64,000 nt of DNA from Candidatus Nealsonbacteria bacterium (lineage in GTDB: Bacteria > Patescibacteriota > Minisyncoccia > Minisyncoccales > RBG-13-36-15). Below, in pieces: positions 37,388-61,767 of the stretch. The stretch lies in assembly GCA_011050465.1 (NCBI GenBank), contig DRFQ01000009.1, positions 334 through 64,333 of the forward strand, written 5' to 3'. Under the pieces are notes generated by a model, which saw nothing but the letters and a program-made list of their open reading frames with translations, did no database searches and was not told the origin of the DNA. Positions within the stretch are counted from its first letter, which is position 1; each line of letters begins with the position of its first letter. Made by a program: the position numbers and the translations under genes.

Positions 37388-37461
37388 TGCGGGGTCGTCT
37401 AACGGTAGGACGGATGCCTCTGGAGCATTTAATCTAGGTTCGAATCCTAGCCCCGCAGCCA
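37388..37461 (+). tRNA. tRNA-Gln (CUG), CCA encoded
   Basis: U1-A72 acceptor TGCGGGG/CCCCGCA, D arm GTCT-AACGGTA-GGAC, anticodon arm GATGC-CTCTGGA-GCATT, T arm CTAGG-TTCGAAT-CCTAG, then GCCA. Confidence 0.9.
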
Positions 37462-42465: not shown

Positions 42466-42470
42466 AAATT

Positions 42471-44369
42471 ATGAAATTATTTCTTAAAGCAATTGAATTC
42501 GAAGATTACAGAAATATAAAAAATGGCTCAAGACTAATTTTTGAGCCTATTACTACTTTAGTTGGAGCAAATGAGAGCGGGAAGAGTAATATAATTAGAG
42601 CCATACAATTGTTATCCGAGGATTTTAATGAAAATGACACGAAAATGGGCAGTATTAGGGCATCAAGAAACGAAATGCCATTACTTAGGTATTTTTTTGA
42701 ACTTAAAAGTAAAGACCTGTTCGGATATTTTAAACAAAGTATTAAAAATTTCAGGGATAAAAATCTGATTTGTTTAATCGTAAGTGGTGAAACAAATGAA
42801 TTAATGTTATCAGATCAACGTTTTTCATTAAGGGAAATTGAATATAGAAATCAATGGAAGAATACTAGTGGTCAGCCCATGAAATTTAAGGCTCGCAAAG
42901 GAAAAGAGATAGAATTACAACAAAACGAAAAAATTTTTGGGGATAATGATAATAAATTTGCTATAGCGAAACTAGCTAGAGAGAATAAAATAACGAAACT
43001 TACGACTGAAGAAATAGACTCAGATGTTATAGATAAAATTTTTAAAGATTTTCTTCCAGAAATAGAATACTGGGAATATGACCAAGATAAACATTATCTT
43101 CCAGACCATGTATTCTGGGATAAATTTTTAACAGCGCCAGATAACTTTTTACCAGTTAAAAATTTATTTTTAATTGCTTGCTCCGAAGGAAATCTAACAG
43201 ATTTTAATACTGCCTTATCTAGTTTTAAAGGTAAAGATCATGAGATTCAAAAATATCTTGATGATGTTAGTAAGTCGCTTAACAAAATTATCAAAAAAAC
43301 ATGGAAGCAAAGCAATATAGAACTACAACTTTTTTATCAAACAGATAAATTGAGATTTGATATATACGAAGGAGGTCGCAGAACTCCTCCAAGCGTAAGA
43401 AGCGATGGTTTAAAATGGTTTCTTTCCTTTTTGCTTGATTTTAGATCAAGAGGTGAGTTGCAAAATAAGATTATTTTATTTGATCAACCGGGTGAGAAAT
43501 TACACCCCGGTGGTCAAAAAGAGTTACGAGAGCGTTTTACAGAAATTGCTTTAAAAAATCAAGTGATTTTTGCAACCCAATCTCCATTTTTAATTGATCG
43601 TAATTCTTGGTCAAAAGTAAAATTTTTACAAAGAAAAAATGGAGACCCTGAAATTAAGCAACCTACTAAATATGATGTAAAGAACGATGAATTACTTCGG
43701 CATTCACTTGGGTATTCACTGGCAGATGTGGGACAAGCCAATGACTTTAATATTGTCGTAGAGGGTTATACCGACCAGTTTTTATTATTAGATATAGGAA
43801 GAAGACTTAATGAAATAGCGTCTTATTTAGAAAAGAAACCGATTATTAATTTAAATAAGATAGCTATCTTTGATTCGCGTGGATTTACCACAATTAAAAA
43901 AAGGGTTGATGAATTACTACAAGCTAATTTGCATGCCATCGGCCTTTATGATGGCGATGATGTTAGTAAAAAACGGTTCTCTCAAGATCGTAAATCTAAG
44001 AGATTTAGAAATCTTCTATTTTCCTTAGATGAAATAGTTGATCAGAATAATTATAAAACGATTGAGGATTTAGTCCCTGAAAGATTATGGGAGAAATCAT
44101 GCAAGGAATATTTTAAAAAGAATCGGTCTAAATTAACTAAGAAAAACTTTTGTCATCCTCGTTGGGGAAAAATTAAGGAATGGTACAAGAATAACTATAA
44201 TACCGAAATTACCCGAAAAGAGAAAGAGAGTCTATGGGAAGTTATTTTTGATAATTGGGATCAATATTTTGATAGCGTAAAAGATATTTCAAAAATTTCT
44301 GAGATTAATATAACAAAACAGGCATTAGAAAGTTTAGCTAAAAAAGTTGCTCGTGGAAAGAATAAATAA
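42471..44369 (+). CDS. OLD-family protein: ABC-type ATPase fused to a C-terminal TOPRIM nuclease domain
   Basis: Walker A GANESGKS, SDGLKWFLSF (signature-like), ILFDQPGEKLHP (Walker B region), and TOPRIM VVEGYTDQ ... GLYDGDD. The start is taken at ATG 42471 (MKLFLK). Confidence 0.75.
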   Translation: MKLFLKAIEFEDYRNIKNGSRLIFEPITTLVGANESGKSNIIRAIQLLSEDFNENDTKMGSIRASRNEMPLLRYFFELKSKDLFGYFKQSIKNFRDKNLICLIVSGETNELMLSDQRFSLREIEYRNQWKNTSGQPMKFKARKGKEIELQQNEKIFGDNDNKFAIAKLARENKITKLTTEEIDSDVIDKIFKDFLPEIEYWEYDQDKHYLPDHVFWDKFLTAPDNFLPVKNLFLIACSEGNLTDFNTALSSFKGKDHEIQKYLDDVSKSLNKIIKKTWKQSNIELQLFYQTDKLRFDIYEGGRRTPPSVRSDGLKWFLSFLLDFRSRGELQNKIILFDQPGEKLHPGGQKELRERFTEIALKNQVIFATQSPFLIDRNSWSKVKFLQRKNGDPEIKQPTKYDVKNDELLRHSLGYSLADVGQANDFNIVVEGYTDQFLLLDIGRRLNEIASYLEKKPIINLNKIAIFDSRGFTTIKKRVDELLQANLHAIGLYDGDDVSKKRFSQDRKSKRFRNLLFSLDEIVDQNNYKTIEDLVPERLWEKSCKEYFKKNRSKLTKKNFCHPRWGKIKEWYKNNYNTEITRKEKESLWEVIFDNWDQYFDSVKDISKISEINITKQALESLAKKVARGKNK

Positions 44370-44375
44370 CTACTT

Positions 44376-45737
44376 ATGGTTACTCATCTCATAATCCAAA
44401 AATCACAACTAGAAGGCGGTTTGCGTCTTGATGCGGAATATTATCAACCGGAATATTTAGAGTTAAAAAATAGATTGTGTAAAACCGAATCATATAAATT
44501 CTGGAAAGATATTAAAGGAAACTTTATTACGGGACCCTTTGGCTCAGAATTTAATGTTGAAAACTATGTTTTAAACGGGAAATATCGGTATGTTCGTGGA
44601 AAAGACGTTAAAGAATTTTTCCTTTCTGACGATGATAACGTATATATACCCCAAAAAGACTTTGAAAGACTTAAAAAATATTCATTAAAAGAAAATGATA
44701 TTTTAATTTCAGTTGTTGGAACGCTTGGAAATGCTGCTATTATTGATAATTCTGTTCCTCCAGCAATTTTTAGCTGTAAGAGTACAGTTTTTCGTAGCGA
44801 ATCGATAAATCCTTACTATTTTATTAGTTATCTTAATTCGCTTTATGGTCGAAAATTATTAGGCCGTAATGTACGCGGCGCAGTTCAGACAGGACTTAAT
44901 ATTGATGATTTGAGATTATTGCCAGTATTTATTCCACCAAAACAACAACAGGAATTGATTGGTTCGTTGGTCTCGAAGGCAAAGGAGGAATATGAAAATA
45001 CTAAATTATTTTATTCTCAAGCTGAAGATTTACTTTTAGAAGAATTGGGTTTAAAAGATTTTGAAGTCGGGGATGATTTGTCTTATGTTGTTAATCTTTC
45101 AGATTTAAAATTAGTTAACCGTATTGATGCCGAGTACTTTCAGCCGAAACACGAGAAATTAATATCAAAAATTAAAAACCAAAATATAAAAAAACTTGCT
45201 GATTTAGTTTCAATAAAAAAGGGGATTGAGATAGGAAGTGAGAAATATCAAAAAGAGGGAAAGTTATTTGTTCGAGTGAGCAATCTTTCAAAACAGGGGA
45301 TTATTGATAAGGATCAGAAATATTTAAGCGAAGAATTATATCAGAAACTAAAAAAAGATTTTGAGCCAAAAGCAGGAGAAATTTTACTAACTAAAGATGC
45401 AACTCCGGGCATGGCTTATTTATTAAAAGAATCAATTGAGGGAATAATTGCCGGCGGAATTTTAAGATTAAAACCCGAAACAAAAATCGAACCAGAATAT
45501 TTAGCTTTAGTGATAAATTCTATTGTTGGTCAATCACAAGTAGAACGAGATACCGGTGGTTCAGTAATTATCCACTGGCGACCAGAACAAATTAAAAATT
45601 GTTCAATTCCAATTTTACCTAAATCTACCCAGCAAAAAATTGCTGATTTGGTTCGCCAATCCCACGAAGCTCGCAAAAAAGCAAAAGAATCATTAGAACA
45701 AGCCAAACAAAAAGTCGAAGAATTAATTGAGAAATAA
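44376..45737 (+). CDS. hsdS: Type I restriction-modification specificity subunit (two target-recognition domains)
   Basis: Duplicated TRD openings RLDAEYYQPEY and RIDAEYFQPKHEKL. Conserved helical spacers (QQQELIGSLV, QQKIADLVRQ). Confidence 0.85.
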   Translation: MVTHLIIQKSQLEGGLRLDAEYYQPEYLELKNRLCKTESYKFWKDIKGNFITGPFGSEFNVENYVLNGKYRYVRGKDVKEFFLSDDDNVYIPQKDFERLKKYSLKENDILISVVGTLGNAAIIDNSVPPAIFSCKSTVFRSESINPYYFISYLNSLYGRKLLGRNVRGAVQTGLNIDDLRLLPVFIPPKQQQELIGSLVSKAKEEYENTKLFYSQAEDLLLEELGLKDFEVGDDLSYVVNLSDLKLVNRIDAEYFQPKHEKLISKIKNQNIKKLADLVSIKKGIEIGSEKYQKEGKLFVRVSNLSKQGIIDKDQKYLSEELYQKLKKDFEPKAGEILLTKDATPGMAYLLKESIEGIIAGGILRLKPETKIEPEYLALVINSIVGQSQVERDTGGSVIIHWRPEQIKNCSIPILPKSTQQKIADLVRQSHEARKKAKESLEQAKQKVEELIEK

Positions 45738-50032: not shown

Positions 50033-51091
50033 ATGGACAAATTAACTTTTAGAAAAAAGTTGGAAGGTCAATTAGAGCAATTCTACTCTGATGAAATACA
50101 AATCGCACCAACCCCGCAATTTACAAAACTATTGGAAAGGATGAAGTCTTTAACTCTAGCAGGTGGGAAACGATTTCGCCCTTATGTCGCTTTCTTAACC
50201 TACTCTTCATATGGTGGAAAAGATTTCGATAAATTACTACGAGTTGCCCTTTCTTCAGAGCTTCTACATAATTATATATTGATTCACGATGATATCATTG
50301 ATAATGACCTAGAGCGTTATGGGGTGCTAAACATAACCGGGCAATACCTCAAAGATTTTACCTCACTAGAAAATGATTCGGACAGATTAAGACTTGCAGA
50401 AGGAATGGCAATAATAGCGGGTGATATTGGACACTCACTCGCATACAAGAACTTATTAAGTATCGATTCTCTTGATGATAGGGAGAAAAAACAATTATGC
50501 AAGCTCTTAACTAACTGCAACATTGACCTGTTGGCTGGACAACAAATGGATACTCTTAATATTGAATTATTGATTGATGATTTTACATTAGATCGGTTAA
50601 TAACCACCTGCATGCTTAAATCCTCTTCATACTCGACGATAATTCCTATGAAAATGGCTGCGATTCTACTTGATTTAAATAATAGAGAAGTTAAACTAAT
50701 AGAAAAATTTGCCGTTCAGTTCGGAATACTTTACCAACTTGTCGATGACTACTCTGACTATTTTATTAATAAGACCGATTTCAATATAAAGGCCAAATAT
50801 AGAGATTTTAGACAAGGGAAAATAACTCATCCATATTTTGTGGCGCTAGAACTCGCAAGCGAACAGGAACGAGATTTTCTTAAAGAAAATTTTGGAAATA
50901 AAAAAATACCTCAAGACCAATTAGAAAGAGTTACAAATATCTTGCTAAATTGTGGAGCAAAAGACAAGGCGATAGAATTAATTTCCAAATATGCAGTGGA
51001 ATCTCAAAATTGCCTTAACAAATTGAATATTTCTAAGGAAGGAAAAAATCAAATGCTAGGGCTGATTGAGCACTATAAAACTGTTGTTTAA
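50033..51091 (+). CDS. Polyprenyl diphosphate synthase (trans-isoprenyl diphosphate synthase family)
   Basis: First Asp-rich motif LIHDDIIDND and second motif VDDYSD. Confidence 0.8.
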   Translation: MDKLTFRKKLEGQLEQFYSDEIQIAPTPQFTKLLERMKSLTLAGGKRFRPYVAFLTYSSYGGKDFDKLLRVALSSELLHNYILIHDDIIDNDLERYGVLNITGQYLKDFTSLENDSDRLRLAEGMAIIAGDIGHSLAYKNLLSIDSLDDREKKQLCKLLTNCNIDLLAGQQMDTLNIELLIDDFTLDRLITTCMLKSSSYSTIIPMKMAAILLDLNNREVKLIEKFAVQFGILYQLVDDYSDYFINKTDFNIKAKYRDFRQGKITHPYFVALELASEQERDFLKENFGNKKIPQDQLERVTNILLNCGAKDKAIELISKYAVESQNCLNKLNISKEGKNQMLGLIEHYKTVV

Positions 51092-51150
51092 CTTTTTTAG
51101 TATAGGTTACGGTATTTTATTGGTCCGAAATAATTCTCCGAAAATCGTCC

Positions 51151-51297
51151 CAGCCAAGCACAACTCAGTATCGAGGGAGACCGATTCCCGTACAAAATTG
51201 GTTCGAGTCCAGGTGCCGTCACGGTACTAGACCGAGGCGGTTCGAGTCGCAGCCCCGCAGCAACAGTCAGCGCAGTATCGAGGCCGACCGAGAGGCC
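51151..51297 (+). repeat. 147-nt direct repeat, copy B
   Basis: See copy A. Confidence 0.9.
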
Positions 51298-51359
51298 CTT
51301 TGTCTGAGGCGTACAGCCTCGGGGTTTTGTTTCTGTTTTTAGTTTGGTAAAATGAAATA

Positions 51360-54300
51360 ATGGCTAAAATTGTTAAAAATAAATTAGGGAATTTTTTGGC
51401 GATTTGCCTTATCCTTTTGATGGTGGCGGGTTGGATTTTTTCTGGCTGGCCACAAGTGTGGCACGATCCTCCTTTTCCTCCAAAAGTTGAAGACGTACAT
51501 GCTACAACAAGAACAATTGAGCAGCAGATAAATATTATTGACCAGGAGTATGAGTCGGAGGTGCTGGGTTCTTATAAGCCAACCGATAATAGTCTTGGCC
51601 TGATCCGTTGGGATAGTGCCAAATATCCTGGCGCTGTGGTTTATTTTGAAGCAGTAGCAATGGTGTTTGCCGAGACCGATACTGTCAAGGTAGCTCTTTT
51701 TAGCTCTGACGGAACACAAGTTGCAAATAGTGAAGTAACCCATTCTAGCGCTGGTAATTATACAAGAGTAAGATCTAGCGCCCTTACTTTGGGTACGCTC
51801 CCCAATTTGCAGAGCAATACCGATTATTCTGTAAGGGTAAAAGCCGTGAATGATTGGGTTTCGCTCAAAGCCGCCCGCCTCATAATTGTCCAGTCCGACG
51901 GCACAAAAATTACAGATACCGTTACTCAAATTGAAGCTGGGGATAATCAGTCTACGACGGCAACCTCAGGAAGTCCGAGCACCCTTGCAAACCCAAATTA
52001 TTATATGTTTGACAAGGATATGTTTTCAGGAACATACGGGACAGACATTAACGCTTATTTTGAGGCGTCTCTTAAAGCTTCAGCAATACTCTCCGCTGCC
52101 GCTTATTATTTCAACGCCTACGACAGCGGTACCGCCTGGACCAACGCCCCAGCGCAGATGGTTGACGGTTCAACGAGCAACTTCGCGGTAACCGGCGGCT
52201 CCGATGAAAATCAACGCAACACCGCAAGCACGTGCGACGCCACATGCGGTGCAAAAAGCGAGACAATCACAAAAGTGGAATTAAGAGTTTATGCTTGCCA
52301 AGATAACGCTGATAACGGATGGATTACCTTAACCCCGTATTTTTCCGGTTCATCGCAGGGAGACGGGCACACTTGGTCGGCGGTTCCCGACGGGAATAGC
52401 TGTGAAACCGGGGTTGCCGCCTGGAGCCCTTATTTTGACATTACAAGCGATACAAATGCTCCGGGCACTTGGGGATGGAGCGATGTAGAAAACCTTGATG
52501 TTAATGTGTTCGGTGACAGACAGGGAGGAGCCGATGTTATCCACGCGGCGCAAGTCGATATTCAAGTAACGTATGAACCGGGTACAACATCTACCGCATA
52601 CGCAGAGCTTTATAACCGCACCAATAGCGCAGTAGTTGGTAATAGTACTATTTCTGTGAATAGCACTAGTTGGACGCGAGTTCGTGGCGCAAGTGCTTTG
52701 AACTCGTCAGACAACTGGGATATAACCAATGATGATGAATATGAAGTGCGCATTTATTCTTCAAGCGGTTCTGACGCCGCCTATATTGCTAATGCTAAAA
52801 TTGTTATTGAACAGAGTATTTCAGGGGGTATAGATAAACTGGAGACGGTGCATCAGTATAATAATACGTTGGTAAGTCTCGGAGGTGATGTGGTAACTGT
52901 TTATGCTCAATTAACTATTTCAGGAGGTGCTGCCATCTCTGGTAGTAAGCAAAGTACTGGTAGTGGCAGTTATACGCGGTTGAGAAGCAGTGGTTTAACA
53001 TTATCTACTAATGATTTTGATGTTGAGTTAAGCGTGAACGATTCAGCATATACGGAACAAGGATTTATGAACAAATATGATTCTACTAATTGGGTGGGTG
53101 GAACTTTTGTATATTTATTTGAAACAATACTTAAAAATGTTGTTACAGTTAGAGAGGACTCCTCAACTTCCTGGCTTATCATTCAGATATCTGGGCTTGC
53201 TTCTATTATCGCAACTACTACCATTGGTGATGGTACTGACCCCAGTGATTCAACGGTTGCACCGGAAAGCGGGATTACTGATCTTGATGCAGTCACTTTC
53301 GTTACCAACACCGGCACTGATTCCATTACTGCCGTAACCGTTACTCTTGGGGCAGGTGATTCAGATAATTTGAGCGAGGTGCGGATTACAAACGATAATG
53401 GATTAACGACATATTTTTCCGCAATTTCCAGTCCCTCAAGTGACACACTCAATTTTAGCGGTGGCACACCAATACCGGTTACAGCTTCATCAACGCAGTT
53501 TAAGGTCAGAATCACTCCAGAAACTCACGCCAACATGCCAGCTCCCCAGGGAGCAGAATATGCTATAACCGGAACCATTACCGCTTTTACCAGTACCAAC
53601 ACCCAGGCAGGAACAGATACCGGCAGTGCCATGATAACCATTGACAACTTATCGCCCAATAACGCCACATCCACAAGTGGTAGTGTTACTTCAGATACTG
53701 AAATAACAATCAACTGGACGACTTCCAACAGTACCGATTACAATCGCTCAATCGTACTGCGGTGGCAAGCCTCCCTTCCTGGGGCCGATGTGCCAGCAGA
53801 AGGTACTAATTATAGTCTTGATGATACCATTGGCGGAGCAAAGGTGGCTTGTGTAGAGAATACCGGTACTTCTTCTACGGCCTACAGCGGGGTTGATGGT
53901 TCTGGTGCAGATGAGTGTAGCACTACCGCTTTGTCTGTCGGTACGCAATATTCATATAAACATTTTGAGAAGGATGATAACGGAAACTGGAATACAGGAT
54001 TTACGAACGCCAGCTCTCCTTTAACGACAACCGGCGGCGCAACTTTAACCTTTAGTATTTCCGACAACGATATATTCTTTGGTGATTTGAGCGCTTCGGC
54101 GTCTAAATGGGCAGATAATACCGCAGACGGAAGCACTACAGCAGTGGTTGCCCATACGCTCGCCGCCTCAACAAACGTCACCAACGGATACACCATAACC
54201 GTAAACGGAACCACGCTTACTTCGGGTGGTGATACCATTATTGCCATGGCTTCTGAAGCTATTCTTACCACCGGGCAAGAAGAGTTTGGTCTGCGCATTA

Positions 54301-54527
54301 CGGCTTCTGGCGGAAACGGTACGGTTGATGCTGATTATGACAATAGTCCAGCTGACAGCTATGCCCTCATTACTGGTAACTTTCCGGATGTGATTGCAAC
54401 AGACGCAGACGGCGATGACGTGAGCACCACATATTCGCTCTACTATGCAGCAAACATTACCGCAAACACCGAGGCCCACACCGACTACACTTCCAGCCTA
54501 ACCTACGTTGCAACCGGAAACTTTTAG
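51360..54527 (+). CDS. Large (1055 aa) Thr/Ser/Asn/Gly-rich cell-surface protein with N-terminal membrane anchor, internal repeats, FN3-like module and a C-terminal domain shared with the next gene
   Basis: TM helix LAICLILLMVAGWIF. A motif repeated three times (YTRVRSSALTL / WTRVRGASAL / YTRLRSSGLTL). ITINWTT...YSYKHF is FN3-like. The last 190 aa or so are paralogous to 54678-55817. It is GC-richer than the core genes. Confidence 0.7.
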   Translation: MAKIVKNKLGNFLAICLILLMVAGWIFSGWPQVWHDPPFPPKVEDVHATTRTIEQQINIIDQEYESEVLGSYKPTDNSLGLIRWDSAKYPGAVVYFEAVAMVFAETDTVKVALFSSDGTQVANSEVTHSSAGNYTRVRSSALTLGTLPNLQSNTDYSVRVKAVNDWVSLKAARLIIVQSDGTKITDTVTQIEAGDNQSTTATSGSPSTLANPNYYMFDKDMFSGTYGTDINAYFEASLKASAILSAAAYYFNAYDSGTAWTNAPAQMVDGSTSNFAVTGGSDENQRNTASTCDATCGAKSETITKVELRVYACQDNADNGWITLTPYFSGSSQGDGHTWSAVPDGNSCETGVAAWSPYFDITSDTNAPGTWGWSDVENLDVNVFGDRQGGADVIHAAQVDIQVTYEPGTTSTAYAELYNRTNSAVVGNSTISVNSTSWTRVRGASALNSSDNWDITNDDEYEVRIYSSSGSDAAYIANAKIVIEQSISGGIDKLETVHQYNNTLVSLGGDVVTVYAQLTISGGAAISGSKQSTGSGSYTRLRSSGLTLSTNDFDVELSVNDSAYTEQGFMNKYDSTNWVGGTFVYLFETILKNVVTVREDSSTSWLIIQISGLASIIATTTIGDGTDPSDSTVAPESGITDLDAVTFVTNTGTDSITAVTVTLGAGDSDNLSEVRITNDNGLTTYFSAISSPSSDTLNFSGGTPIPVTASSTQFKVRITPETHANMPAPQGAEYAITGTITAFTSTNTQAGTDTGSAMITIDNLSPNNATSTSGSVTSDTEITINWTTSNSTDYNRSIVLRWQASLPGADVPAEGTNYSLDDTIGGAKVACVENTGTSSTAYSGVDGSGADECSTTALSVGTQYSYKHFEKDDNGNWNTGFTNASSPLTTTGGATLTFSISDNDIFFGDLSASASKWADNTADGSTTAVVAHTLAASTNVTNGYTITVNGTTLTSGGDTIIAMASEAILTTGQEEFGLRITASGGNGTVDADYDNSPADSYALITGNFPDVIATDADGDDVSTTYSLYYAANITANTEAHTDYTSSLTYVATGNF

Positions 54528-54677
54528 TTTATAGGTTTTCCACAACCAGCTTATTGATGTTGTTGCTTGATACTGGTATTCTGTTATAATAAATAAAAAC
54601 CATAAAAAGGTTACGTTTCGTATCAGCCAATATAACTATTCCTTTCCCTTGGTCGATAAGGAATACAAAAACTGCCA

Positions 54678-55817
54678 ATGAACCAACTATATTTTATAAG
54701 AAGAAACATAGATATAAAAAAAGTCCTTACCAGCTTGGGGCTTATTGTCGCAGTGCTGGTGTTGTTGATAGCGCCGCCCGTGCAGATTGCAAGGGCAGCT
54801 ACCTTGCTGAACATGAGAGACACTCTCACTACCGTGAAGGCAAGTACCGTAACTGACCATGAGATTATATTCCGCACGCCAACGGGAGCTGATGAGTCCA
54901 CAGACACCATCATCATTGACATTGGAGCTACCGATACCTCGTGGAATACCAGCAGCTTAGCGATTGGTGACGTGGATTTGGCGCACTCAGCCGGTGCCCA
55001 GAGCGACTGCGACGCTCCAACATTCAGCAACGAGGAGACACTTGCAGCTTCCGCTACCGCCACCGATTGGCAACTGGACTTTGACACCACAAACGATATC
55101 CTTACCTTCACTGCCCCAACAGACGGCGTGGGAGCCGCTGCTATTGCAACTAACGCCTGTGTGCAGATACAGATTGGTACCAATGCTAGTGGAGGATCAA
55201 ACCAGATTACCAACAGCACTGCGGGCAGCAAGAATATAGACATTTTGGGTACCTTTAACGACACCGGTACCATAGTGGTAACGCTCATAGCTGACGATAT
55301 AGTAGTGACAACTGCCACGGTCGTTGCTTCTCTAACGTTTACCGTTGATGATAATGATATCTTTTTTGGCACCTTGGGCGCTGGGGCAGCAAAATGGGCA
55401 GATAATACCGCAGACGGAAGCACTTCGTCAGTCGTTGGCCACACCATGACCGTAGGTACCAACAGTACATCCGGCTACAGTGTTACTTACAACGGTACCG
55501 CGCTCACGTCTGGTTCAGATAAAATTTCCGATAGCGGCAACACCACCATTACCGGAGATGCGGACGGAACTCCCGGCTCAGAGGAGTTTGCCATTGGGGT
55601 TACCGTGAGCGACAACGCGACTATTGCTTCTGGATATGAGCAGGCCTCCAACAACTTCAAGTTTGTTGAAAGCACCACTGCCACACTTGTCTCTGAAACT
55701 ATTCAAACCGCCGCAGAAACAATCTCTGTCTACTACATAACCAACATTGCCGCAAACACCGAGGCCCACATCGACTACACTTCCAACATAACCTACATTG
55801 CAACCGGGAACTTCTAG
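54678..55817 (+). CDS. Secreted surface/fibre-subunit-like protein, paralogous C-terminal domain
   Basis: Signal peptide ending IARA-ATLL. The C-terminal domain (DNDIFFG..KWADNTADGST...TEAHIDYTSNITYIATGNF) aligns with the C-terminus of the 1055-aa protein. Confidence 0.7.
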   Translation: MNQLYFIRRNIDIKKVLTSLGLIVAVLVLLIAPPVQIARAATLLNMRDTLTTVKASTVTDHEIIFRTPTGADESTDTIIIDIGATDTSWNTSSLAIGDVDLAHSAGAQSDCDAPTFSNEETLAASATATDWQLDFDTTNDILTFTAPTDGVGAAAIATNACVQIQIGTNASGGSNQITNSTAGSKNIDILGTFNDTGTIVVTLIADDIVVTTATVVASLTFTVDDNDIFFGTLGAGAAKWADNTADGSTSSVVGHTMTVGTNSTSGYSVTYNGTALTSGSDKISDSGNTTITGDADGTPGSEEFAIGVTVSDNATIASGYEQASNNFKFVESTTATLVSETIQTAAETISVYYITNIAANTEAHIDYTSNITYIATGNF

Positions 55818-55861
55818 GAGCTCTCTTGCTCGATGCCGTGCTGGCGTGATAGCATAACATC

Positions 55862-56959
55862 ATGAAATTTTGGGTACTCATTGGCTTTTTTTTGGCTATT
55901 GGGGTAATGCTTTTACCTCAAGGAGCACAGGCTCTCACCGTTTCCCCGGTGCGGGTGGAACTTGCTGCCGACCCCGGAGCAAACGTGAAAGGCGTGATTT
56001 TGCTTATTAATGAACAGGAAGGAACCAGAACTTTTTATTCTTCTCTTGAAAATTTTGAAGCTCTGGGAGAAACAGGCACACCAACATTTATTGAAAGCGC
56101 AGAAGGACTGGCAACGTGGATTGAAACTGCTTCTCAAGTAACCATAGAGCAAGGAGAGAAAAAAGAAGTTCCCTACACCATTATAGTACCCCAGGACGCT
56201 GACCCCGGAGGCCACTTTGCAGCCATTTTCTGGAGCACTTCTCCTCCCCGAGCAGAAGAGGAAGGAGGGGTTTCTATTGGGGTTAAACTCGGTGTTCTCA
56301 TATTGCTCCGCGTAAGCGGAGAAATAGAAGAGGAAGGAGGACTTCTAGAATTTAACGCTCAAGATAAACAAAGCTTTTTCAGTTCGTTACCCATAACGCT
56401 TACCTACCGTTTTCAAAACGGTGGGGGTGACCGCGTGAAGCCAGAGGGAGAGATAACGATAAAGAATATATTTGGCAGAATCTCAGCTGTTCTCCCAGCA
56501 AACGAATCTGAGGGAAATGTATTGCCCCAGTCTATTCGGAAGTTTCAGGTGACCTGGGATATAACCCAGAAGGAGGGCGAGCTCAATACGAGGCAGGCAC
56601 AAAAGGATGATGAGAAAGTTGGATTTTTTGGAGCAGTCAAAAGACAATGGAGCGATTTTCATTTTGGTAGATATACTACTCAGCTAAACTTAAATTATGG
56701 GGCGGAAAATGAAAAAGCTGAAGCTGGCTTCAGCTTTTTTGTTATTCCCTGGCAGCTTCTGAGTATTATACTTTTTGTGGTGATGGTTGTTGGTCTTCTT
56801 AGTAAAATAGCAATAAAGAGATATAACCAATGGATTATCGCAAGGGCCGTACAGATGCAAGTACCTAAAGAAATCAACACAACCAAAGCGAGGAAGAAAA
56901 TAAAAACAAACCTTCGTAAAAACAAAAGAAGCCAAGTAAAACGAAGTATTAAAAGATGA
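55862..56959 (+). CDS. Signal-peptide protein with two beta-sandwich-like halves, a C-terminal TM helix and a basic tail (DUF916/DUF3324-like, chaperone-like)
   Basis: AQA-LTVSPVRVEL start, PGGHFAAIFW, then a C-terminal TM helix (LLSIILFVVMVVGLL) and a K/R-rich tail. The architecture resembles CscA-type partners of WxL proteins. This is an inference. Confidence 0.55.
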   Translation: MKFWVLIGFFLAIGVMLLPQGAQALTVSPVRVELAADPGANVKGVILLINEQEGTRTFYSSLENFEALGETGTPTFIESAEGLATWIETASQVTIEQGEKKEVPYTIIVPQDADPGGHFAAIFWSTSPPRAEEEGGVSIGVKLGVLILLRVSGEIEEEGGLLEFNAQDKQSFFSSLPITLTYRFQNGGGDRVKPEGEITIKNIFGRISAVLPANESEGNVLPQSIRKFQVTWDITQKEGELNTRQAQKDDEKVGFFGAVKRQWSDFHFGRYTTQLNLNYGAENEKAEAGFSFFVIPWQLLSIILFVVMVVGLLSKIAIKRYNQWIIARAVQMQVPKEINTTKARKKIKTNLRKNKRSQVKRSIKR

Positions 56960-57997
56960 ATGAAGCCTTTTATCAATTACTTTTTATCGCTAATAATTAT
57001 TCTCATTTTCTTAGGTGTAACATCTTTTTTCCATATTCACGCTGCTGAAGAAACTGTTACTATTTCAGCCACCGTAGAAGATTGCGGTAATGACGTTAAA
57101 GGAGGAGATGAACAATGCGATGGCTCTGATTTAAATGGGGAAACTTGTGTGAGCCGTGGTTTTACTGGTGGCACTTTAAGTTGTAACGATAATTGTACTT
57201 TTAATACTTTTGGTTGTAGCTCAGGCGGAGGAGGTGGCGGAGGAGCCTATATTCCGCCTCCGCCGCAAACTGCAGTAAATTTTAGTGGTAGGGCCTATCC
57301 ACTAAGCAAAGTTACCGTTTTAAAGGACGGCCAAGTAGCAATAACCACCATAGCAGGTCCTGATGCAAATTTTTATATTTCATTATCCGGTTTGTCTTCC
57401 GGTAATTATATATTTTCGGTTTATGGTGAGGATAATAAACAAAGACGCTCTAGTTTATTTACATTTCCAGTATTTGTTACCAGAGGTGCCATTACAACTA
57501 TCAGTGGTATTTTTCTTGCACCCACAATTGATGTTGATAAAAGCGAAGTGAAGCGAGGCGACAATATCGCTATTTTCGGGCAGAGCGCGCCTCAAGGCGA
57601 AATTACTATTTCTATTAATTCAGAAGAGGAAATTTTTGTAAAAACTAATACTGATGCAGACGGTATTTATTTATATAATTTCGACACTAGTCCATTAGCG
57701 ATAAGACAACATCTTACCAAATCAAAAGTTGCTGCAGATGGGATTATTAGTTCTTTTAGTAAAACGGTAACTTTTAATGTTGGAACCAAGACAGTTTTCA
57801 AAGAAAAACCAGAATTTTTAAAAGGCGATTTGAATAATGACGGTAGAGTAAACCTTGTTGATTTTTCTATTGCGGCCTATTGGTATAAACGGTCGATCAG
57901 CGCTGAATTTGCCCGAAAGGAAGCCGAGAGGTTAAATAACGACGGCAAAATTGATTTAGTGGATTTTAGTATTATGGCATTTTATTGGACAGGATAA
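56960..57997 (+). CDS. Secreted protein with Cys-rich module, poly-Gly/Pro linker, Ig-like region and C-terminal dockerin-like repeats
   Basis: CGNDVKGGDEQCDGSDLNGETC...C..NC.F..C; GGGGGGGAYIPPPP; GDLNNDGRVNLVDFSI and LNNDGKIDLVDFSI (two EF-hand-like dockerin segments, about 57818-57994). Confidence 0.65.
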   Translation: MKPFINYFLSLIIILIFLGVTSFFHIHAAEETVTISATVEDCGNDVKGGDEQCDGSDLNGETCVSRGFTGGTLSCNDNCTFNTFGCSSGGGGGGGAYIPPPPQTAVNFSGRAYPLSKVTVLKDGQVAITTIAGPDANFYISLSGLSSGNYIFSVYGEDNKQRRSSLFTFPVFVTRGAITTISGIFLAPTIDVDKSEVKRGDNIAIFGQSAPQGEITISINSEEEIFVKTNTDADGIYLYNFDTSPLAIRQHLTKSKVAADGIISSFSKTVTFNVGTKTVFKEKPEFLKGDLNNDGRVNLVDFSIAAYWYKRSISAEFARKEAERLNNDGKIDLVDFSIMAFYWTG

Positions 57998-58023
57998 GAA
58001 CTTCATTTGATTAATATTTCAAT

Positions 58024-58947
58024 ATGCAAAAACCAATAAAATTAAAAACCCCAAATTATTTCCTAATAATATTGCTAGTTTCGGTACTACTTTTTGTTGC
58101 CGGGCAGGTTTTTGCAGCTAGGGTCTTTATAGATTCTAAGAGTCAAGAAATGAAGATAGATGCTCAATTTGAAGCGAGTATTTTTCTCGATACAGAGGAA
58201 GCATATATTAATGCGATAGAAGGAAAGATTATATTTCCAGCAGATTTATTAGAATTAAAAGAAATAAGAGACGGCAATTCTATTGTTAATTTTTGGATTG
58301 AAAGGGCAAGAGTTGAATCTGCGGGACAAGTTATTTTTTCAGGAATTACTCCCGGCGGTTATATAGGAGAGAGGGGTTTAATTTTTTCTATTATCTTTGA
58401 ATCGAAAAAAGAAGGTAGGGGCATAATTGAGATTCATAGCGCCAAAACATTACTTAATGACGGAAAGGGCACAGAGGCGACGGTAACAACTTCTGATTTG
58501 CAATTTCTTATATCTGGGCAAATGTCACCTTCTGAAATTTCAATTCCTGAGATTGTAGATAGCGATTCGCCAGAACCATTTGAGCTAACTATTGCTCAAG
58601 ACTCAGAAATATTTGATGGAAAGTATTTTTTAGTATTTACTGCTCAAGATAAAGGAGCAGGGATAGATCATTACGAAATCTTAGAAGCTAGTCAGCGCGG
58701 TTCTCTGCAAGGCTTAATAAAAAAAGAAGAATGGCAAGGTGGAGAGAGTCCGTACGTTTTGCGGGATCAAAAACTCAAAAGCTATATCTATGTGAAGGCG
58801 ATTGACAGAGCGGGGAACGAAAGGATTGCCACATTGCATCCTCAAAATTCGCTAAAATGGTATGAAAATTATTTCGTTTATATTATAATCATAGTAGGCT
58901 TCGTCGTTATCTATATGCTATGGCGGATTCTAAGAAAAAGAAAATAA
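58024..58947 (+). CDS. Membrane-anchored protein with cohesin-like domain
   Basis: N-terminal signal/TM. A cohesin-like beta domain (FEASIFLDTEEAYINAIEGKIIFPADLLEL). GIDHYEI...AIDRAGNE module. C-terminal TM plus RKRK. Confidence 0.55.
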   Translation: MQKPIKLKTPNYFLIILLVSVLLFVAGQVFAARVFIDSKSQEMKIDAQFEASIFLDTEEAYINAIEGKIIFPADLLELKEIRDGNSIVNFWIERARVESAGQVIFSGITPGGYIGERGLIFSIIFESKKEGRGIIEIHSAKTLLNDGKGTEATVTTSDLQFLISGQMSPSEISIPEIVDSDSPEPFELTIAQDSEIFDGKYFLVFTAQDKGAGIDHYEILEASQRGSLQGLIKKEEWQGGESPYVLRDQKLKSYIYVKAIDRAGNERIATLHPQNSLKWYENYFVYIIIIVGFVVIYMLWRILRKRK

Positions 58948-60722
58948 ATATAGAACAAGGGCATCATTATAAACCCAATAAAAGCACTGAAAAATTTGGC
59001 TTAGGCTTCATTTTTTTATTGGGTATGGTTTTAACGATTATTAATTTGACACTGCCTAATTTTGTATTAGCGGCAGATCTGTATTTTTATCCTTCCGTTG
59101 ATTCTTATAATGTTGGCCAGATTTTTTCTGTTATTGTGTATGTTTCGAGTACTGACCAAACAATGAATGCGGCTTCTGGTGTCGTCTCTTTTCCTAAAGA
59201 CAAATTAAATGTTATTTCTATTTCTAAAAGCGAATCTATCTTTAGCTTATGGGTACAGGAACCAATTTTTTCCAACAGTATCGGCACAATTAATTTTGAG
59301 GGTATAGTGTTGAACCCCGGCTTTATAGGATTAACCGGGAAAATCCTTGCCATAAATTTTAAAGCAAAAAATACTGGAAATGCATCTTTAGCTTTTTCTT
59401 CCGGTTCAGTATTAGCTAATGATGGTAGGGGAACAAGCATATTAGAAGCTATGGATTCTGCAAGCTATACTCTAAACTCAGAAGAAGTTACCTCTCAAGA
59501 TGAGGAAGAAAAAGAGTATATTCCGCCTAAAATTGGAGTACCGATTGCTCCAACGGTTTCTTCATCTACCCATCCCGATTCTGAAAAATGGTATTCAAAT
59601 AATGACCCTGAATTCTACTGGAAACTGCCGTCTGATGTCACTGGGGTAAGCTTCTTGCTTTATAAGAGTTCCATTGCTAACCCAGGACCAATTTCCGATG
59701 GCATAATGGAATCTAAAAAATTTGAAGATATTGATGATGGCGTGTGGTATTTCCATATCCAACTTAAAAATAAATATGGTTGGGGAGAAATTACGCACAG
59801 GAAAGTTTTAATTGATACTGTTCCTCCAGAGTTGTTCGAGATTGAAACCCAAAAAGATGACCCACTAGATCCTCGACCAAAATTTCTTTTTACATCTACA
59901 GATAATACTTCGGGAATTAGTTATTATGAGGTAAAAATTGGCAAGGAATATTCAGAAACAGTATCAGCAGCTGATATAAAAGAAAAACCCTATCAAGTAC
60001 CGCCACAGTCCCCAGGAAAACATTTGATTGAAGTTAAGGCATTCGATAGGGCAGGAAATTTTAGTTCAGATTCGATTGAAATCGAAATTTTACCAATTGA
60101 AGAACCAAGTATTTTGAATTATCCCGAAAGAATTAGAATTGGGGAGATTTTAGAGATTGAAGGAAGGTCGTTACCTGAAACTTCGGTAATAATTTTTATT
60201 CAAAGAGAAGAGAAGGTGCCAATTTTAGAAGAAGTTAAGACTGATTCTCAAGGAGATTGGAAATTTGTTTATGAGAAAGCTTTAGTCCAAGGTAGATATA
60301 GTTTCTGGGCTCAGGCTAAAGACGGGAGAGAAGCATTAAGCTACCCTACTCAAAAATATTTTTTTGAAATTGGCTTACCTCCTTTTTTAAAACTTGGGAA
60401 AATAACAATAGAATATTTAACTACCGTGGTTACTCTATTTATTTTAATCGTTGCAACCGTCGTTATTATCTTTTATGCTTGGTATCGAATTTTACTCTGG
60501 AGGAAAAAACTTAAAACGGAAACTACGGAAGCGGAGAAGGCCCTCCGTAAAGCCTTTAGTTTTTTGAGGAAAAGAATTAACGAACAGATTAGAATGTTCG
60601 ATTCTCGGCCTGGTCTAAGCGGAAAAGAAAGAAGAATTCGAGATAGCTTAGAGGATAGCCTAAAGATTGCCAAAGAAATTGTTGCCAAAGAAATTAAAGA
60701 TATAGAAAAGGAATTAGAGTAA
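58920..60722 (+). CDS. Membrane-anchored protein with cohesin-like domain, Ig-like modules, C-terminal TM and a cytoplasmic coiled-coil tail
   Basis: FSVIVYVSSTDQTMNAASGVVSFPKDKLNV is cohesin-like. GISYYEV...AFDRAGN is the same module as in the previous gene. TM helix VVTLFILIVATVVIIFYAW. It overlaps the previous gene by 28 nt, and the start is uncertain. Confidence 0.55.
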   Translation: MADSKKKKINIEQGHHYKPNKSTEKFGLGFIFLLGMVLTIINLTLPNFVLAADLYFYPSVDSYNVGQIFSVIVYVSSTDQTMNAASGVVSFPKDKLNVISISKSESIFSLWVQEPIFSNSIGTINFEGIVLNPGFIGLTGKILAINFKAKNTGNASLAFSSGSVLANDGRGTSILEAMDSASYTLNSEEVTSQDEEEKEYIPPKIGVPIAPTVSSSTHPDSEKWYSNNDPEFYWKLPSDVTGVSFLLYKSSIANPGPISDGIMESKKFEDIDDGVWYFHIQLKNKYGWGEITHRKVLIDTVPPELFEIETQKDDPLDPRPKFLFTSTDNTSGISYYEVKIGKEYSETVSAADIKEKPYQVPPQSPGKHLIEVKAFDRAGNFSSDSIEIEILPIEEPSILNYPERIRIGEILEIEGRSLPETSVIIFIQREEKVPILEEVKTDSQGDWKFVYEKALVQGRYSFWAQAKDGREALSYPTQKYFFEIGLPPFLKLGKITIEYLTTVVTLFILIVATVVIIFYAWYRILLWRKKLKTETTEAEKALRKAFSFLRKRINEQIRMFDSRPGLSGKERRIRDSLEDSLKIAKEIVAKEIKDIEKELE

Positions 60723-60857
60723 ATTAGGATCTGAAGCCAACATCATATAGTTTGCCAAAATTAAACCTGCTATAATCAAAGCAGGTTTAAAGTCTACCTG
60801 AAATGTTAATTATATGCCAAAACCGGCACCTCAAAATACTCTTTGGTATTCATAAAA

Positions 60858-60888
60858 TAGGTTCGAACAGCGTTCACGCCCCGCAGCA
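60858..60888 (+). pseudogene. Degenerate copy of the tRNA-Gln 3-prime half (taggttcgaa...gccccgcagca)
   Basis: It shares taggttcgaa and gccccgcagc with tRNA-Gln 37438-37461, but the T stem is disrupted. It marks the far end of the accessory region. Confidence 0.55.
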
Positions 60889-60993
60889 CTTCGACAAGCT
60901 CAGTGCAGGCCACCTTGAGCGCAGTATCGAGGCCGACCGTGAGGGCTTCCCGTTAGGGCGACCGAGATGGATATAAGTAAAAAAAATCGCTAG

Positions 60994-61767
60994 ATGAACG
61001 ATTTTTTGTTAGGATTAAGATATATGGCAGACGAAGAAATTGAGAAACATAAAATAGCAGCCAAAAAATTAGAATTGGTTAAAAATGAAGCGCTTCGGTT
61101 TATTAAAAGGAACCTTGGCCAGGTTTCTGAATATGATGTTCACGAATTTATTCTTTCAGAGTTTAGAAAGAAAAATTTAATAACCGATAGAAATAATCCC
61201 ATTCAGATCGTGGCCGTTGATCAAGATACAGCAATTGTTCATTATTTTCCGCCAAAAAGAAAATCAAAAATTATCAAAAAGAATAATTTAATTTTAATCG
61301 ATATTTGGGCAAAATTAAAAGAGAAAAACGCTCCCTTCGCTGATATCACTTGGATAGCTTATTCTGGAACAGATATACCAAAAGCTATTGAGAAGATTTT
61401 CAATAAAGTGATTACTGCCCAAGATGTCGCTTTAAATTTTATTAAGGAAACTTTAAAGAACAAAAAACTTCCCAAAACAAAGAATGTTGATGAAGCGGCA
61501 AGGAATTATTTTAAGAAATTTGCTTTAGAAAAATATTTTCTTCACGGCTTAGGCCATAGTTTGGGAATTACCGAGTGTCATGGAAAATATTTCCGTTTTG
61601 GGGAGAAAAGTAAGGCTAAATTAAAATCAGGTATTCCGTTTACTATTGAGCCTGGGCTTTATTTTAAAAATAAGTTCGGAATTAGAAGCGAAATCGATTG
61701 TTATATAACTAAAGATTTTAAGCTAATTATAACTACCGAAGTCCAAAAAAAGATAGTCAAAATTTAA
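60994..61767 (+). CDS. M24-family metallopeptidase (Xaa-Pro/creatinase fold), short form
   Basis: HGLGHSLG, FTIEPGLY and the SEIDCYIT region are pita-bread fold metal ligand motifs. Confidence 0.7.
   Translation: MNDFLLGLRYMADEEIEKHKIAAKKLELVKNEALRFIKRNLGQVSEYDVHEFILSEFRKKNLITDRNNPIQIVAVDQDTAIVHYFPPKRKSKIIKKNNLILIDIWAKLKEKNAPFADITWIAYSGTDIPKAIEKIFNKVITAQDVALNFIKETLKNKKLPKTKNVDEAARNYFKKFALEKYFLHGLGHSLGITECHGKYFRFGEKSKAKLKSGIPFTIEPGLYFKNKFGIRSEIDCYITKDFKLIITTEVQKKIVKI

Follow-up and report, generated by a model that had tools for sequence, protein, structure and literature searches.

A dockerin adaptor and two cohesin membrane proteins at the end of a Pam/WxL-like pilus operon of Candidatus Nealsonbacteria: a probable split envelope anchor

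Three adjacent genes, at positions 56960–57997, 58024–58947 and 58920–60722 of a 64,000-nucleotide (nt) stretch of DNA from Candidatus Nealsonbacteria bacterium (assembly GCA_011050465.1, contig DRFQ01000009.1), encode proteins of 345, 307 and 600 amino acids (aa). The first protein is a secreted adaptor that ends in a dockerin, and the other two are membrane anchors carrying one cohesin each. The whole stretch, referred to as the window below, contains exactly one dockerin and two cohesin modules. An earlier note, made from the DNA letters, had delimited the same three open reading frames (ORFs) but overlooked that they are the tail end of a Pam/WxL-like pilus operon that starts at 51360. Here, the trio is compared with more than 100 related gene clusters, and we suggest that it is probably a split, non-covalent anchor in the cell envelope.

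The operon starts with a large pilin gene, followed by a small pilin gene, a WxLIP-like chaperone gene, the dockerin adaptor gene and the two cohesin genes, i.e., the trio forms its 3′ end. The stop codon of the chaperone gene directly abuts the start codon of the adaptor gene, and the genes of the 307-aa and 600-aa proteins overlap by 28 nt. A promoter and terminator scan of 50900–61100 gave the same counts as shuffled sequence; its sole useful feature is a terminator-like hairpin at 51303–51323, upstream of the first pilin gene. The features of the operon are the following.

51360–54527, + strand: large Pam-like pilin or adhesin, 1055 aa (NF058581 above cutoff; the C-terminal pilin profile from related loci also matches)
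54120–54524, + strand: C-terminal Pam pilin domain of the 1055-aa protein, aa 921–1055
54678–55817, + strand: small Pam-like pilin, 379 aa (NF058581 below cutoff)
55410–55814, + strand: C-terminal pilin domain of the 379-aa protein, aa 245–379
55862–56959, + strand: WxLIP-like (DUF916-type) putative membrane-anchored pilus chaperone, 365 aa (PF06030 matches in orthologues, profile match to EfmWxLIP1)
56960–57997, + strand: secreted adaptor with C-terminal dockerin, 345 aa (ORF, AlphaFold2 (AF2), Foldseek)
aa 1–28 of the adaptor, + strand: signal peptide
57044–57082, + strand: conserved alternating beta-strand TVTISATV of the adaptor, aa 29–41
57083–57217, + strand: six-Cys module of the adaptor, aa 42–86
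aa 87–103 of the adaptor, + strand: Gly/Pro linker
57269–57793, + strand: two immunoglobulin (Ig)-like domains of the adaptor, aa 104–278
57821–57994, + strand: type-I dockerin module with two duplicated calcium-loop and helix segments, aa 288–345 of the adaptor (Pfam PF00404, dockerins in the PDB, AF2)
58024–58947, + strand: cohesin membrane anchor 1, 307 aa (AF2, Foldseek, Pfam Cohesin matches in orthologues)
aa 1–31 of the 307-aa protein, + strand: signal peptide
58117–58518, + strand: cohesin of the 307-aa protein, aa 32–165
58576–58839, + strand: FN3/Ig-like domain of the 307-aa protein, aa 185–272
58870–58941, + strand: transmembrane (TM) helix of the 307-aa protein, aa 283–306, followed by an RKRK tail
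58920–60722, + strand: cohesin membrane anchor 2, 600 aa (Pfam matches in orthologues, hhalign to the 307-aa family)
up to about aa 51 of the 600-aa protein, + strand: signal peptide
59073–59477, + strand: cohesin of the 600-aa protein, aa 52–186
aa 205–296 of the 600-aa protein, + strand: extra (inserted) beta domain
aa 297–390 of the 600-aa protein, + strand: FN3-like domain
60102–60380, + strand: Big_13 Ig domain of the 600-aa protein, aa 395–487
60408–60488, + strand: TM helix of the 600-aa protein, aa 497–523
60498–60719, + strand: conserved cytoplasmic helical tail of the 600-aa protein, aa 527–600

By its sequence signature, the 345-aa protein carries a true type-I dockerin, as the earlier note had proposed. 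The C-terminus reads ...KGDLNNDGRVNLVDFSIAAYWYKR...ERLNNDGKIDLVDFSIMAFYWTG and is made of two near-identical segments, DLNNDGRVNLVDFSIAAYWY and RLNNDGKIDLVDFSIMAFYW. A type-I dockerin is recognised by a duplicated segment in which a 12-residue calcium-binding loop, D-x-N-x-D-G-x-x-N/D-x-x-D, precedes a helix, and this layout is seen here. Loop 1 is DLNNDGRVNLVD, in which D, N, D, N and D are invariant or nearly so in 55 orthologues, and loop 2 is RLNNDGKIDLVD, with four of the five ligand positions conserved. Each loop is followed by an FSI(A/M)A(Y/F)(W/Y) helix, and both helices are near-invariant in the same 55 sequences. The Pfam hidden Markov model (HMM) of Dockerin_1 (PF00404) matches residues 288–339 with 23.1 bits against a gathering cutoff of 22.9 (E 8.6e-5), and the orthologues score from 22.7 to 44.1 bits. 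A phmmer search of the PDB returns the Bacteroides cellulosolvens dockerin 2y3n_B (E 2.6e-5), followed by about ten more dockerins. In the predicted structure, the dockerin consists of three helices (299–308, 315–324 and 333–344) with predicted local distance difference test (pLDDT) values of 86–95. A public protein from a marine-sediment metagenome, LCGC14_0103030, is 100% identical and is labelled 'Dockerin domain-containing protein' in UniRef.

About 20–22 of the 55 adaptor orthologues have a Cys in place of the Gly at position 6 of calcium loop 1, together with a second Cys about ten residues upstream. The columns of this pair (alignment A3) correspond to residues 285/286 and 295 of the window protein, which has G. 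These two Cys residues point to a dockerin subtype that is stapled by a disulphide.

The AF2 model of the whole adaptor (pLDDT 76.6) shows a signal peptide, a disordered N-terminal stretch, the six-Cys module, the Gly/Pro linker, the two Ig-like domains and the dockerin. Foldseek relates it to tandem Ig/FN3 adhesin stalks, including RbmA (4be5) and also Bap, SiiE and intimin. The only Pfam domains are Big_6 and Dockerin_1, and neither Pfam nor the fold matches contain a catalytic or carbohydrate-binding domain. Across the family, the mature N-terminus is a conserved alternating beta-strand, for example TVTISATV, SVNITATV or ATIKITV. With a mean column identity of 54%, the adaptor family is much more conserved than the pilins, and the dockerin (conservation 0.79, compared with 0.78 for the Ig domains) is among its most conserved parts. 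Between loci, the linker, the Ig domains and the dockerin are the invariant part of the protein, while the N-terminal part is modular.

The two proteins encoded downstream of the adaptor are, judging from their alignments, paralogues. BLASTP aligns an N-terminal module of about 135 aa with 31% identity (E 6e-15), and hhalign of the two family profiles gives a probability of 99.9 (E 3e-36). The GI(D/S)(H/Y)YE...DRAGN module that the earlier note had pointed out is present in both. The profile of the 307-aa family has only two weak matches among PDB sequences, both to Ruminococcus flavefaciens cohesins (E 0.3–0.6), and a comparison of folds was therefore required. An AF2 model of the 307-aa protein, made from 56 orthologues, has a mean pLDDT of 89 and nine strands within residues 32–164. 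All of the top 50 Foldseek matches in the PDB are cohesins, with target-normalised TM-scores of up to 0.82 and root-mean-square deviations of 2.5–3.5 Å; the best is the Clostridium perfringens cohesin-FN3 structure 2w1n (E 1.2e-10). The AF2 models are of the 307-aa and 345-aa monomers, and the cohesin of the 600-aa protein is assigned by its homology to the 307-aa protein. Pfam Cohesin matches 8 of 56 orthologues of the 307-aa protein (best E 1.2e-5) and 30 of 46 orthologues of the 600-aa protein (best E 2e-10); of these 46 orthologues, 41 match Big_13. Several of these orthologues are named 'cohesin domain-containing protein' by NCBI. The predicted fold of the 307-aa anchor is unambiguously that of a cohesin, and the dockerin and the cohesins of the trio are genuine members of their superfamilies.

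The earlier note had asked for a check against the Pfam HMMs, where a lack of support would count against it. For the dockerin the HMM scores above its cutoff, while the Cohesin HMM finds orthologues and not the window proteins themselves. This speaks against the cohesin assignment in the literal sense only, as the orthologues match and the fold leaves no ambiguity.

A hydropathy scan finds one C-terminal TM helix in each of the two anchors (residues 285–303 and 500–518), followed by basic residues, in agreement with the earlier note. The note also read the N-terminal hydrophobic segments as anchors. However, these segments end in VFA|A in the 307-aa protein and VLA|A in the 600-aa protein, and are therefore most likely cleavable signal peptides. 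Given the signal peptides of all three proteins and the C-terminal TM helix plus basic residues of each anchor, dockerin and cohesins should face the same, outer side of the membrane. Beyond its TM helix, the 600-aa protein continues with a charged, helical tail of about 75 aa that is kept in length and sequence in 60 of 60 orthologues, with the family consensus EAE.ALHKAFDLLKEDI..QIK.LEK...KR.LT.EEE.... The cytoplasmic tail of about 70 aa described in the earlier note is thus present, while the role given to it there, coupling to the cell interior, is only a proposal. The TM helix and tail also resemble subunit b of ATP synthase, but this similarity is weak (E about 0.01) and was judged to be compositional.

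The trio is widespread. Relatives of the 307-aa protein are found in at least 283 species representatives (one genome per species), essentially all of them metagenome-assembled genomes (MAGs) of Patescibacteria, a few of them with plainly wrong bin labels, and a profile search of 1.84 billion cluster representatives finds 2429 clusters at E<=1e-30. The cassette is also carried by a cultured archaeal parasite, Ca. Microsyncoccus archaeolyticus PMX.50 (locus L026, 8155–12537). Seven contigs (L002, L012, L035, L041, L049, L053 and L073) are deposited under the names Methylomirabilis, Deferribacteres, Gammaproteobacteria and Planctomycetia; contigs with such unrelated names are probably mis-binned or mislabelled MAGs. 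Among 81 loci retrieved with the cohesin, the gene order dockerin-cohesin-cohesin is present in 76, and the rest are cut by contig ends.

An independent sample of 80 metagenomic loci was collected through the chaperone gene (alignment A5). At least 4.2 kb of downstream sequence is available in 31 of them; 30 of these have a dockerin, 30 have at least one cohesin and 26 have two. To count co-occurrence, the loci in this sample with a complete adaptor gene and at least 1 kb after it were used. Both dockerin and cohesin are present in 39 loci and both are absent in four, with no discordant locus (Fisher p 8e-6, kinship ignored).

In the four loci without the pair (L108, L109, L133 and L160), and also in L142, the adaptor has another anchor at its end, as listed here.

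L108 2883–3902: adaptor with a PG_binding_1 end
L109 3332–4351: adaptor with a PG_binding_1 end
L133 1363–2274: adaptor with its own C-terminal TM helix
L142 1501–2859: adaptor with its own C-terminal TM helix
L160 1541–2536: adaptor with its own C-terminal TM helix

The adaptors of L108 and L109 are related to the dockerin protein of another locus over the strand and the first domain (44% identity over 183 aa, E 1e-47) and end in PG_binding_1, a peptidoglycan (PG)-binding domain (30 bits, cutoff 23). No cohesin gene is present within 7 kb after them. In L133 and L160, the N-terminal strand is kept, the protein ends with its own TM helix and a basic tail, and the next genes are housekeeping genes. 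The Cys-rich module is likewise retained in L160, whose adaptor shares 41% identity with the window protein (E 5e-20). The layout of the L142 adaptor is also TM-anchored, and the contig of this locus ends soon after the gene. The dockerin and cohesin genes are therefore gained and lost together, and either a covalent TM anchor or a wall-binding domain can take the place of the pair, as would be expected of a split envelope anchor.

The type of N-terminus of the adaptor covaries with the presence of pilus genes. Pilus genes are present upstream of 18 of 20 trios with the strand-type N-terminus but of none of the 17 with an alternative N-terminal class (p 1e-8), which ties the strand-type adaptor to the pilus genes. 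The alternative dockerin proteins are 430–470 aa long (L031 8612–9946, L048 8589–9941, L077 7301–8656 and 14 other loci). They start with a module SS.NF.L..P....GGG.S.S.NF....GQ...G.S.S..F....GF.YFP, followed by FN3. This module belongs to no Pfam family, and there are no upstream pilus genes in the 17 loci.

The genes upstream of the trio identify the operon. The NCBIfam model NF058581 (CPR_Pam_pilin_C) matches the 1055-aa protein with 59.2 bits, above its cutoff of 55, and the 379-aa protein with 39 bits (E 8e-10), under the cutoff. Both proteins share the C-terminal motif ...TEAH.DYTS..TY(I/V)ATGNF, and neither matches the Pfam WxL domain at E<=1. The GC content is 0.46–0.49 in 52000–56000 and about 0.37 elsewhere in the window. 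This rise coincides with the pilin genes, which are rich in Thr, Ala, Gly and Ser; it is therefore an effect of coding composition and no evidence of foreign DNA. In the third protein, of 365 aa, a signal peptide precedes two beta domains, which are followed by a TM helix (aa 300–318) and a basic tail. Pfam WxLIP_PGBD (PF06030) matches 22 of 27 of its orthologues (best E 5.6e-8), whereas the window protein alone has no match. The family profile aligns with EfmWxLIP1 (9i25_C, 9i1y_A) over about 230 residues (E 6e-5). The profile evidence thus makes the putative chaperone a homologue of the WxLIP/DUF916 proteins of Firmicutes.

The combination of a small and a large protein with a common C-terminal domain and a TM-anchored WxLIP protein mirrors the operon logic of WxL clusters. 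Pam pili and WxL clusters may thus be connected in evolution, a point on which the Pam preprint is silent (Troman et al., bioRxiv 10.64898/2026.03.03.709456).

We suggest that the trio is a split, non-covalent envelope anchor, and that the strand-type adaptor is the cell-proximal tether of a Pam/WxL-like fibre; this reading is probable. The adaptor would be exported by Sec, and its dockerin would plug into the cohesin of either membrane anchor, presumably in a calcium-dependent manner. This docking would hold the adaptor a few nanometres above the cytoplasmic membrane, where it most likely would be the cell-proximal tether or the terminator of the fibre, the role that has been proposed for PamR (see below). 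The individual parts differ in strength. The earlier note had proposed a cognate non-cellulosomal pair, and the co-occurrence of the genes makes such a pairing of cohesin and dockerin highly likely. Tethering of the fibre by the N-terminal strand of the adaptor is less certain, at slightly below even odds. The identities of the domains, the topology signals, the structure of the operon and the co-occurrence with its anchor swaps are shown by the data, whereas physical binding of cohesin and dockerin, its dependence on calcium and the engagement of a pilin by the N-terminal strand are inferred. A complex in which one dockerin bridges both cohesins was rejected as the default. The known type-I dockerins with dual binding use the same face for both modes, which is the reason for this rejection.

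Several observations weigh against this interpretation. Both structure predictions are of monomers. Pfam Cohesin (PF00963) matches neither the 307-aa nor the 600-aa protein of the window at E<=1. In loop 2 of the window dockerin, position 1 is an R instead of Asp; among 55 sequences of the family, 22 have D there, 19 have R and 6 have K. On the cohesin side, the conservation of strands 3, 5, 6 and 8 is 0.72 compared with 0.65 for the other sheet (Mann-Whitney p 0.09), with the strands of this 8-3-6-5 face numbered from the AF2 monomer model; such a weak trend was dropped as evidence for binding. The adaptor strand has its best match at the expected pilin strand in 4 of 15 pilins, all of them small pilins with the same offset. 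This similarity was also dropped, as the Thr/Ser/Val-rich composition makes four of 15 unconvincing. The co-occurrence statistics ignore phylogeny, and the four exceptions represent about three independent events. Finally, of the 43 loci that were sampled through the cohesin and have 6 kb or more of sequence upstream, 16 have no pilus genes before the trio, and there the N-terminal module of the dockerin protein differs. The use of the cohesin-dockerin device therefore extends beyond the anchoring of pili.

These last loci would fit a different explanation, in which the pair anchors a separate adhesin that uses its Cys-rich knob to bind a ligand on a host or substrate, and the pilus neighbourhood reflects co-regulation only. 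Trios without pilus genes that carry another N-terminal cargo would be natural in that case, the Ig-Ig stalk does resemble the stalks of the adhesins Bap, SiiE and intimin, and the adaptor strand has no significant sequence match to a pilin strand. However, the strand-type N-terminus is tightly linked to pilus genes, as seen above, and the adaptor gene abuts the chaperone gene and is present in 30 of the 31 chaperone-sampled operons. Its mean column identity exceeds that of the pilins, which is unusual for a host-specific adhesin, and the TM-anchored variants share the layout described for PamR. We consider this explanation unlikely.

The cohesin-fold modules could also bind another ligand, such as pilins, glycans or peptidoglycan, with the dockerin-like repeat acting as a calcium-stabilised structural cap. 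The missing Pfam Cohesin matches in the window, the lack of a significant conservation bias on the canonical binding face and the partly degenerate loop 2 are in line with this idea. It does not explain the perfect co-occurrence of dockerin and cohesin, their joint loss when the adaptor gains a TM helix or a PG-binding domain, or the high conservation of the dockerin with its nearly invariant helices. In addition, every known cohesin partner is, to our knowledge, a dockerin. We find this alternative very improbable.

Cohesins and dockerins are the hallmarks of cellulosomes, and one metaproteomic study has read such proteins from the Candidate Phyla Radiation (CPR) as parts of a cellulosome-like, polysaccharide-degrading complex. 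However, a catalytic or carbohydrate-binding domain is absent from the dockerin protein, the anchors have a single cohesin each and lack a carbohydrate-binding module (CBM), the 64-kb window contains a single dockerin, and the context is a pilus operon. The defining features of a cellulosome, i.e., dockerins on carbohydrate-active enzymes and a scaffoldin with multiple cohesins and a CBM, were looked for and are not there, so the system is not one, and we give this explanation hardly any credit.

The earlier note placed the trio in a mobile region. The only mobile-like feature seen is a type I restriction-modification system at 40510–45737, about 6 kb upstream of the operon start. It consists of an HsdM-like N6_Mtase with an HSDR_N domain and an HsdS, with a gene for an AAA_21/AbiEii-like ATPase between the M and S genes. 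The genes that directly flank the operon are housekeeping genes (a histidine phosphatase, a polyprenyl synthetase, an M24 peptidase and an EngB-like GTPase), and the label is therefore unsupported. The closest tRNA gene (37388–37461) lies about 14 kb upstream of the operon, and no integrase or transposase family was found among ten flanking proteins scanned, the remaining window not being scanned for such families. Although the restriction-modification genes and the AAA_21 ATPase could hint at it, cargo of a mobile element is extremely unlikely given these flanks and a gene order that is syntenic across hundreds of species, recurring in at least 283 species representatives and 326 metagenomic stretches.

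A split envelope anchor would resemble the anchoring scaffoldins of cellulosomes (SdbA, OlpB and Orf2p of Clostridium thermocellum, ScaE of R. flavefaciens) in that a cohesin fixed to the envelope receives a secreted dockerin. The similarity extends to the cohesin fold, with target-normalised TM-scores of 0.7–0.82, and to the type-I dockerin with its duplicated calcium loop and helix. In contrast to these scaffoldins, the anchors in the window use a single C-terminal TM helix and not S-layer homology (SLH) repeats or sortase. They are two single-cohesin paralogues without a CBM, one with a conserved cytoplasmic tail. Their cargo is a non-enzymatic, Ig-rich adaptor, and they belong to the pilus operon of a Patescibacterium with a tiny genome.

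The best structural matches come from non-cellulosomal pairs, i.e., 2xdh from Archaeoglobus fulgidus and 2w1n from the GH84C protein of C. perfringens, an organism with dockerins in toxin complexes. 2w1n has the same cohesin-FN3 tandem as the window anchor, and 2xdh aligns to the 307-aa model with a target-normalised TM-score of 0.78. As proposed for the window, these modules assemble proteins in a context unrelated to cellulose. However, they are found on soluble enzymes or isolated proteins, while the window has membrane-anchor paralogues and an adaptor in a fixed three-gene cassette.

Another close system is the Pam pilus of Ca. Mycosynbacter amalyticus, with donor-strand pilins and with chaperones that stay in the membrane through a TM helix at their C-terminus (Troman et al., bioRxiv 10.64898/2026.03.03.709456). 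According to the same preprint, the chaperones PamC and PamD are PapD/FimC-like, and PamR (WP_260763282.1), which has an N-terminal strand, two tandem FnIII/RbmA-like domains and a TM helix, is the proposed terminator and tether of the fibre; neither cohesin nor dockerin is mentioned. The operon in the window also encodes Pam-type pilins and a putative chaperone with a C-terminal TM anchor, and related operons carry a TM-anchored adaptor. PamR and the window adaptor, likened here by description only, both have a strand, two Ig/FN3 domains (with a fold match to RbmA) and a proposed anchor function. They differ in that the window adaptor has a dockerin in place of the TM helix, so that the anchor is provided in trans by the two cohesins, and an extra Cys-rich module.

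The upstream half of the operon is similar to the WxL clusters of Firmicutes, in which small and large WxL proteins share a C-terminal domain and are encoded together with WxLIP, a two-domain protein of the DUF916 type (DUF916-DUF3324) that ends in a TM helix (Hassan et al. 2023, PMC10599100). Going by the summary of that paper, a cohesin-dockerin trio is not reported for WxL clusters. In the window, unlike in WxL clusters, the common C-terminal domain is the CPR Pam pilin domain, without a Pfam WxL match. Single genes of the trio have already been labelled 'cohesin domain-containing' or 'dockerin' by database pipelines, but no description of the conserved trio, of its placement in a Pam-like operon or of the anchor swaps was found in the literature.

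It can be speculated further that TVTISATV, through donor-strand exchange, fills the incomplete Ig-like C-domain of the last pilin, and that the fibre is attached to the cell only by a reversible, calcium-dependent bond between the dockerin and the cohesins of the two membrane anchors. This is a tentative idea that we regard as rather doubtful. If true, it would be the first use of a cohesin-dockerin pair in pilus biogenesis, and the bond would be a built-in point for release or exchange of the fibre. The cytoplasmic tail of the 600-aa anchor would then couple the base of the fibre to a cytoplasmic partner.

Patescibacteria account for much of the diversity of bacteria and live on the surface of other cells, but little is understood of the way in which they fix surface structures to their envelope. 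The Pam pilus dates from a description in 2026, which left its anchoring open. The cassette, carried by hundreds of species, is a concrete and expressible candidate for the anchor. Natural swaps, in which a TM helix or a PG-binding domain stands in for the dockerin and its cohesins, provide an unusually clean comparative argument for the role of the module. Matches to cohesin or dockerin in CPR genomes should not be taken as cellulosomes.

Some genomes have tandem trios or a third cohesin-anchor gene (L123, L050, L051, L064, L069, L118 and L122), thus the module can be duplicated and expanded. In L123 (2–6610 and 6680–14260), one dockerin protein is more than 1300 aa long and runs off the contig. 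In some loci (L020 7378–7746; proteins P0014 and P0054), small four-helix ORFs similar to '23S rRNA-intervening sequence protein' or bAvd are found just upstream of the trio genes or have been fused to them by gene callers.

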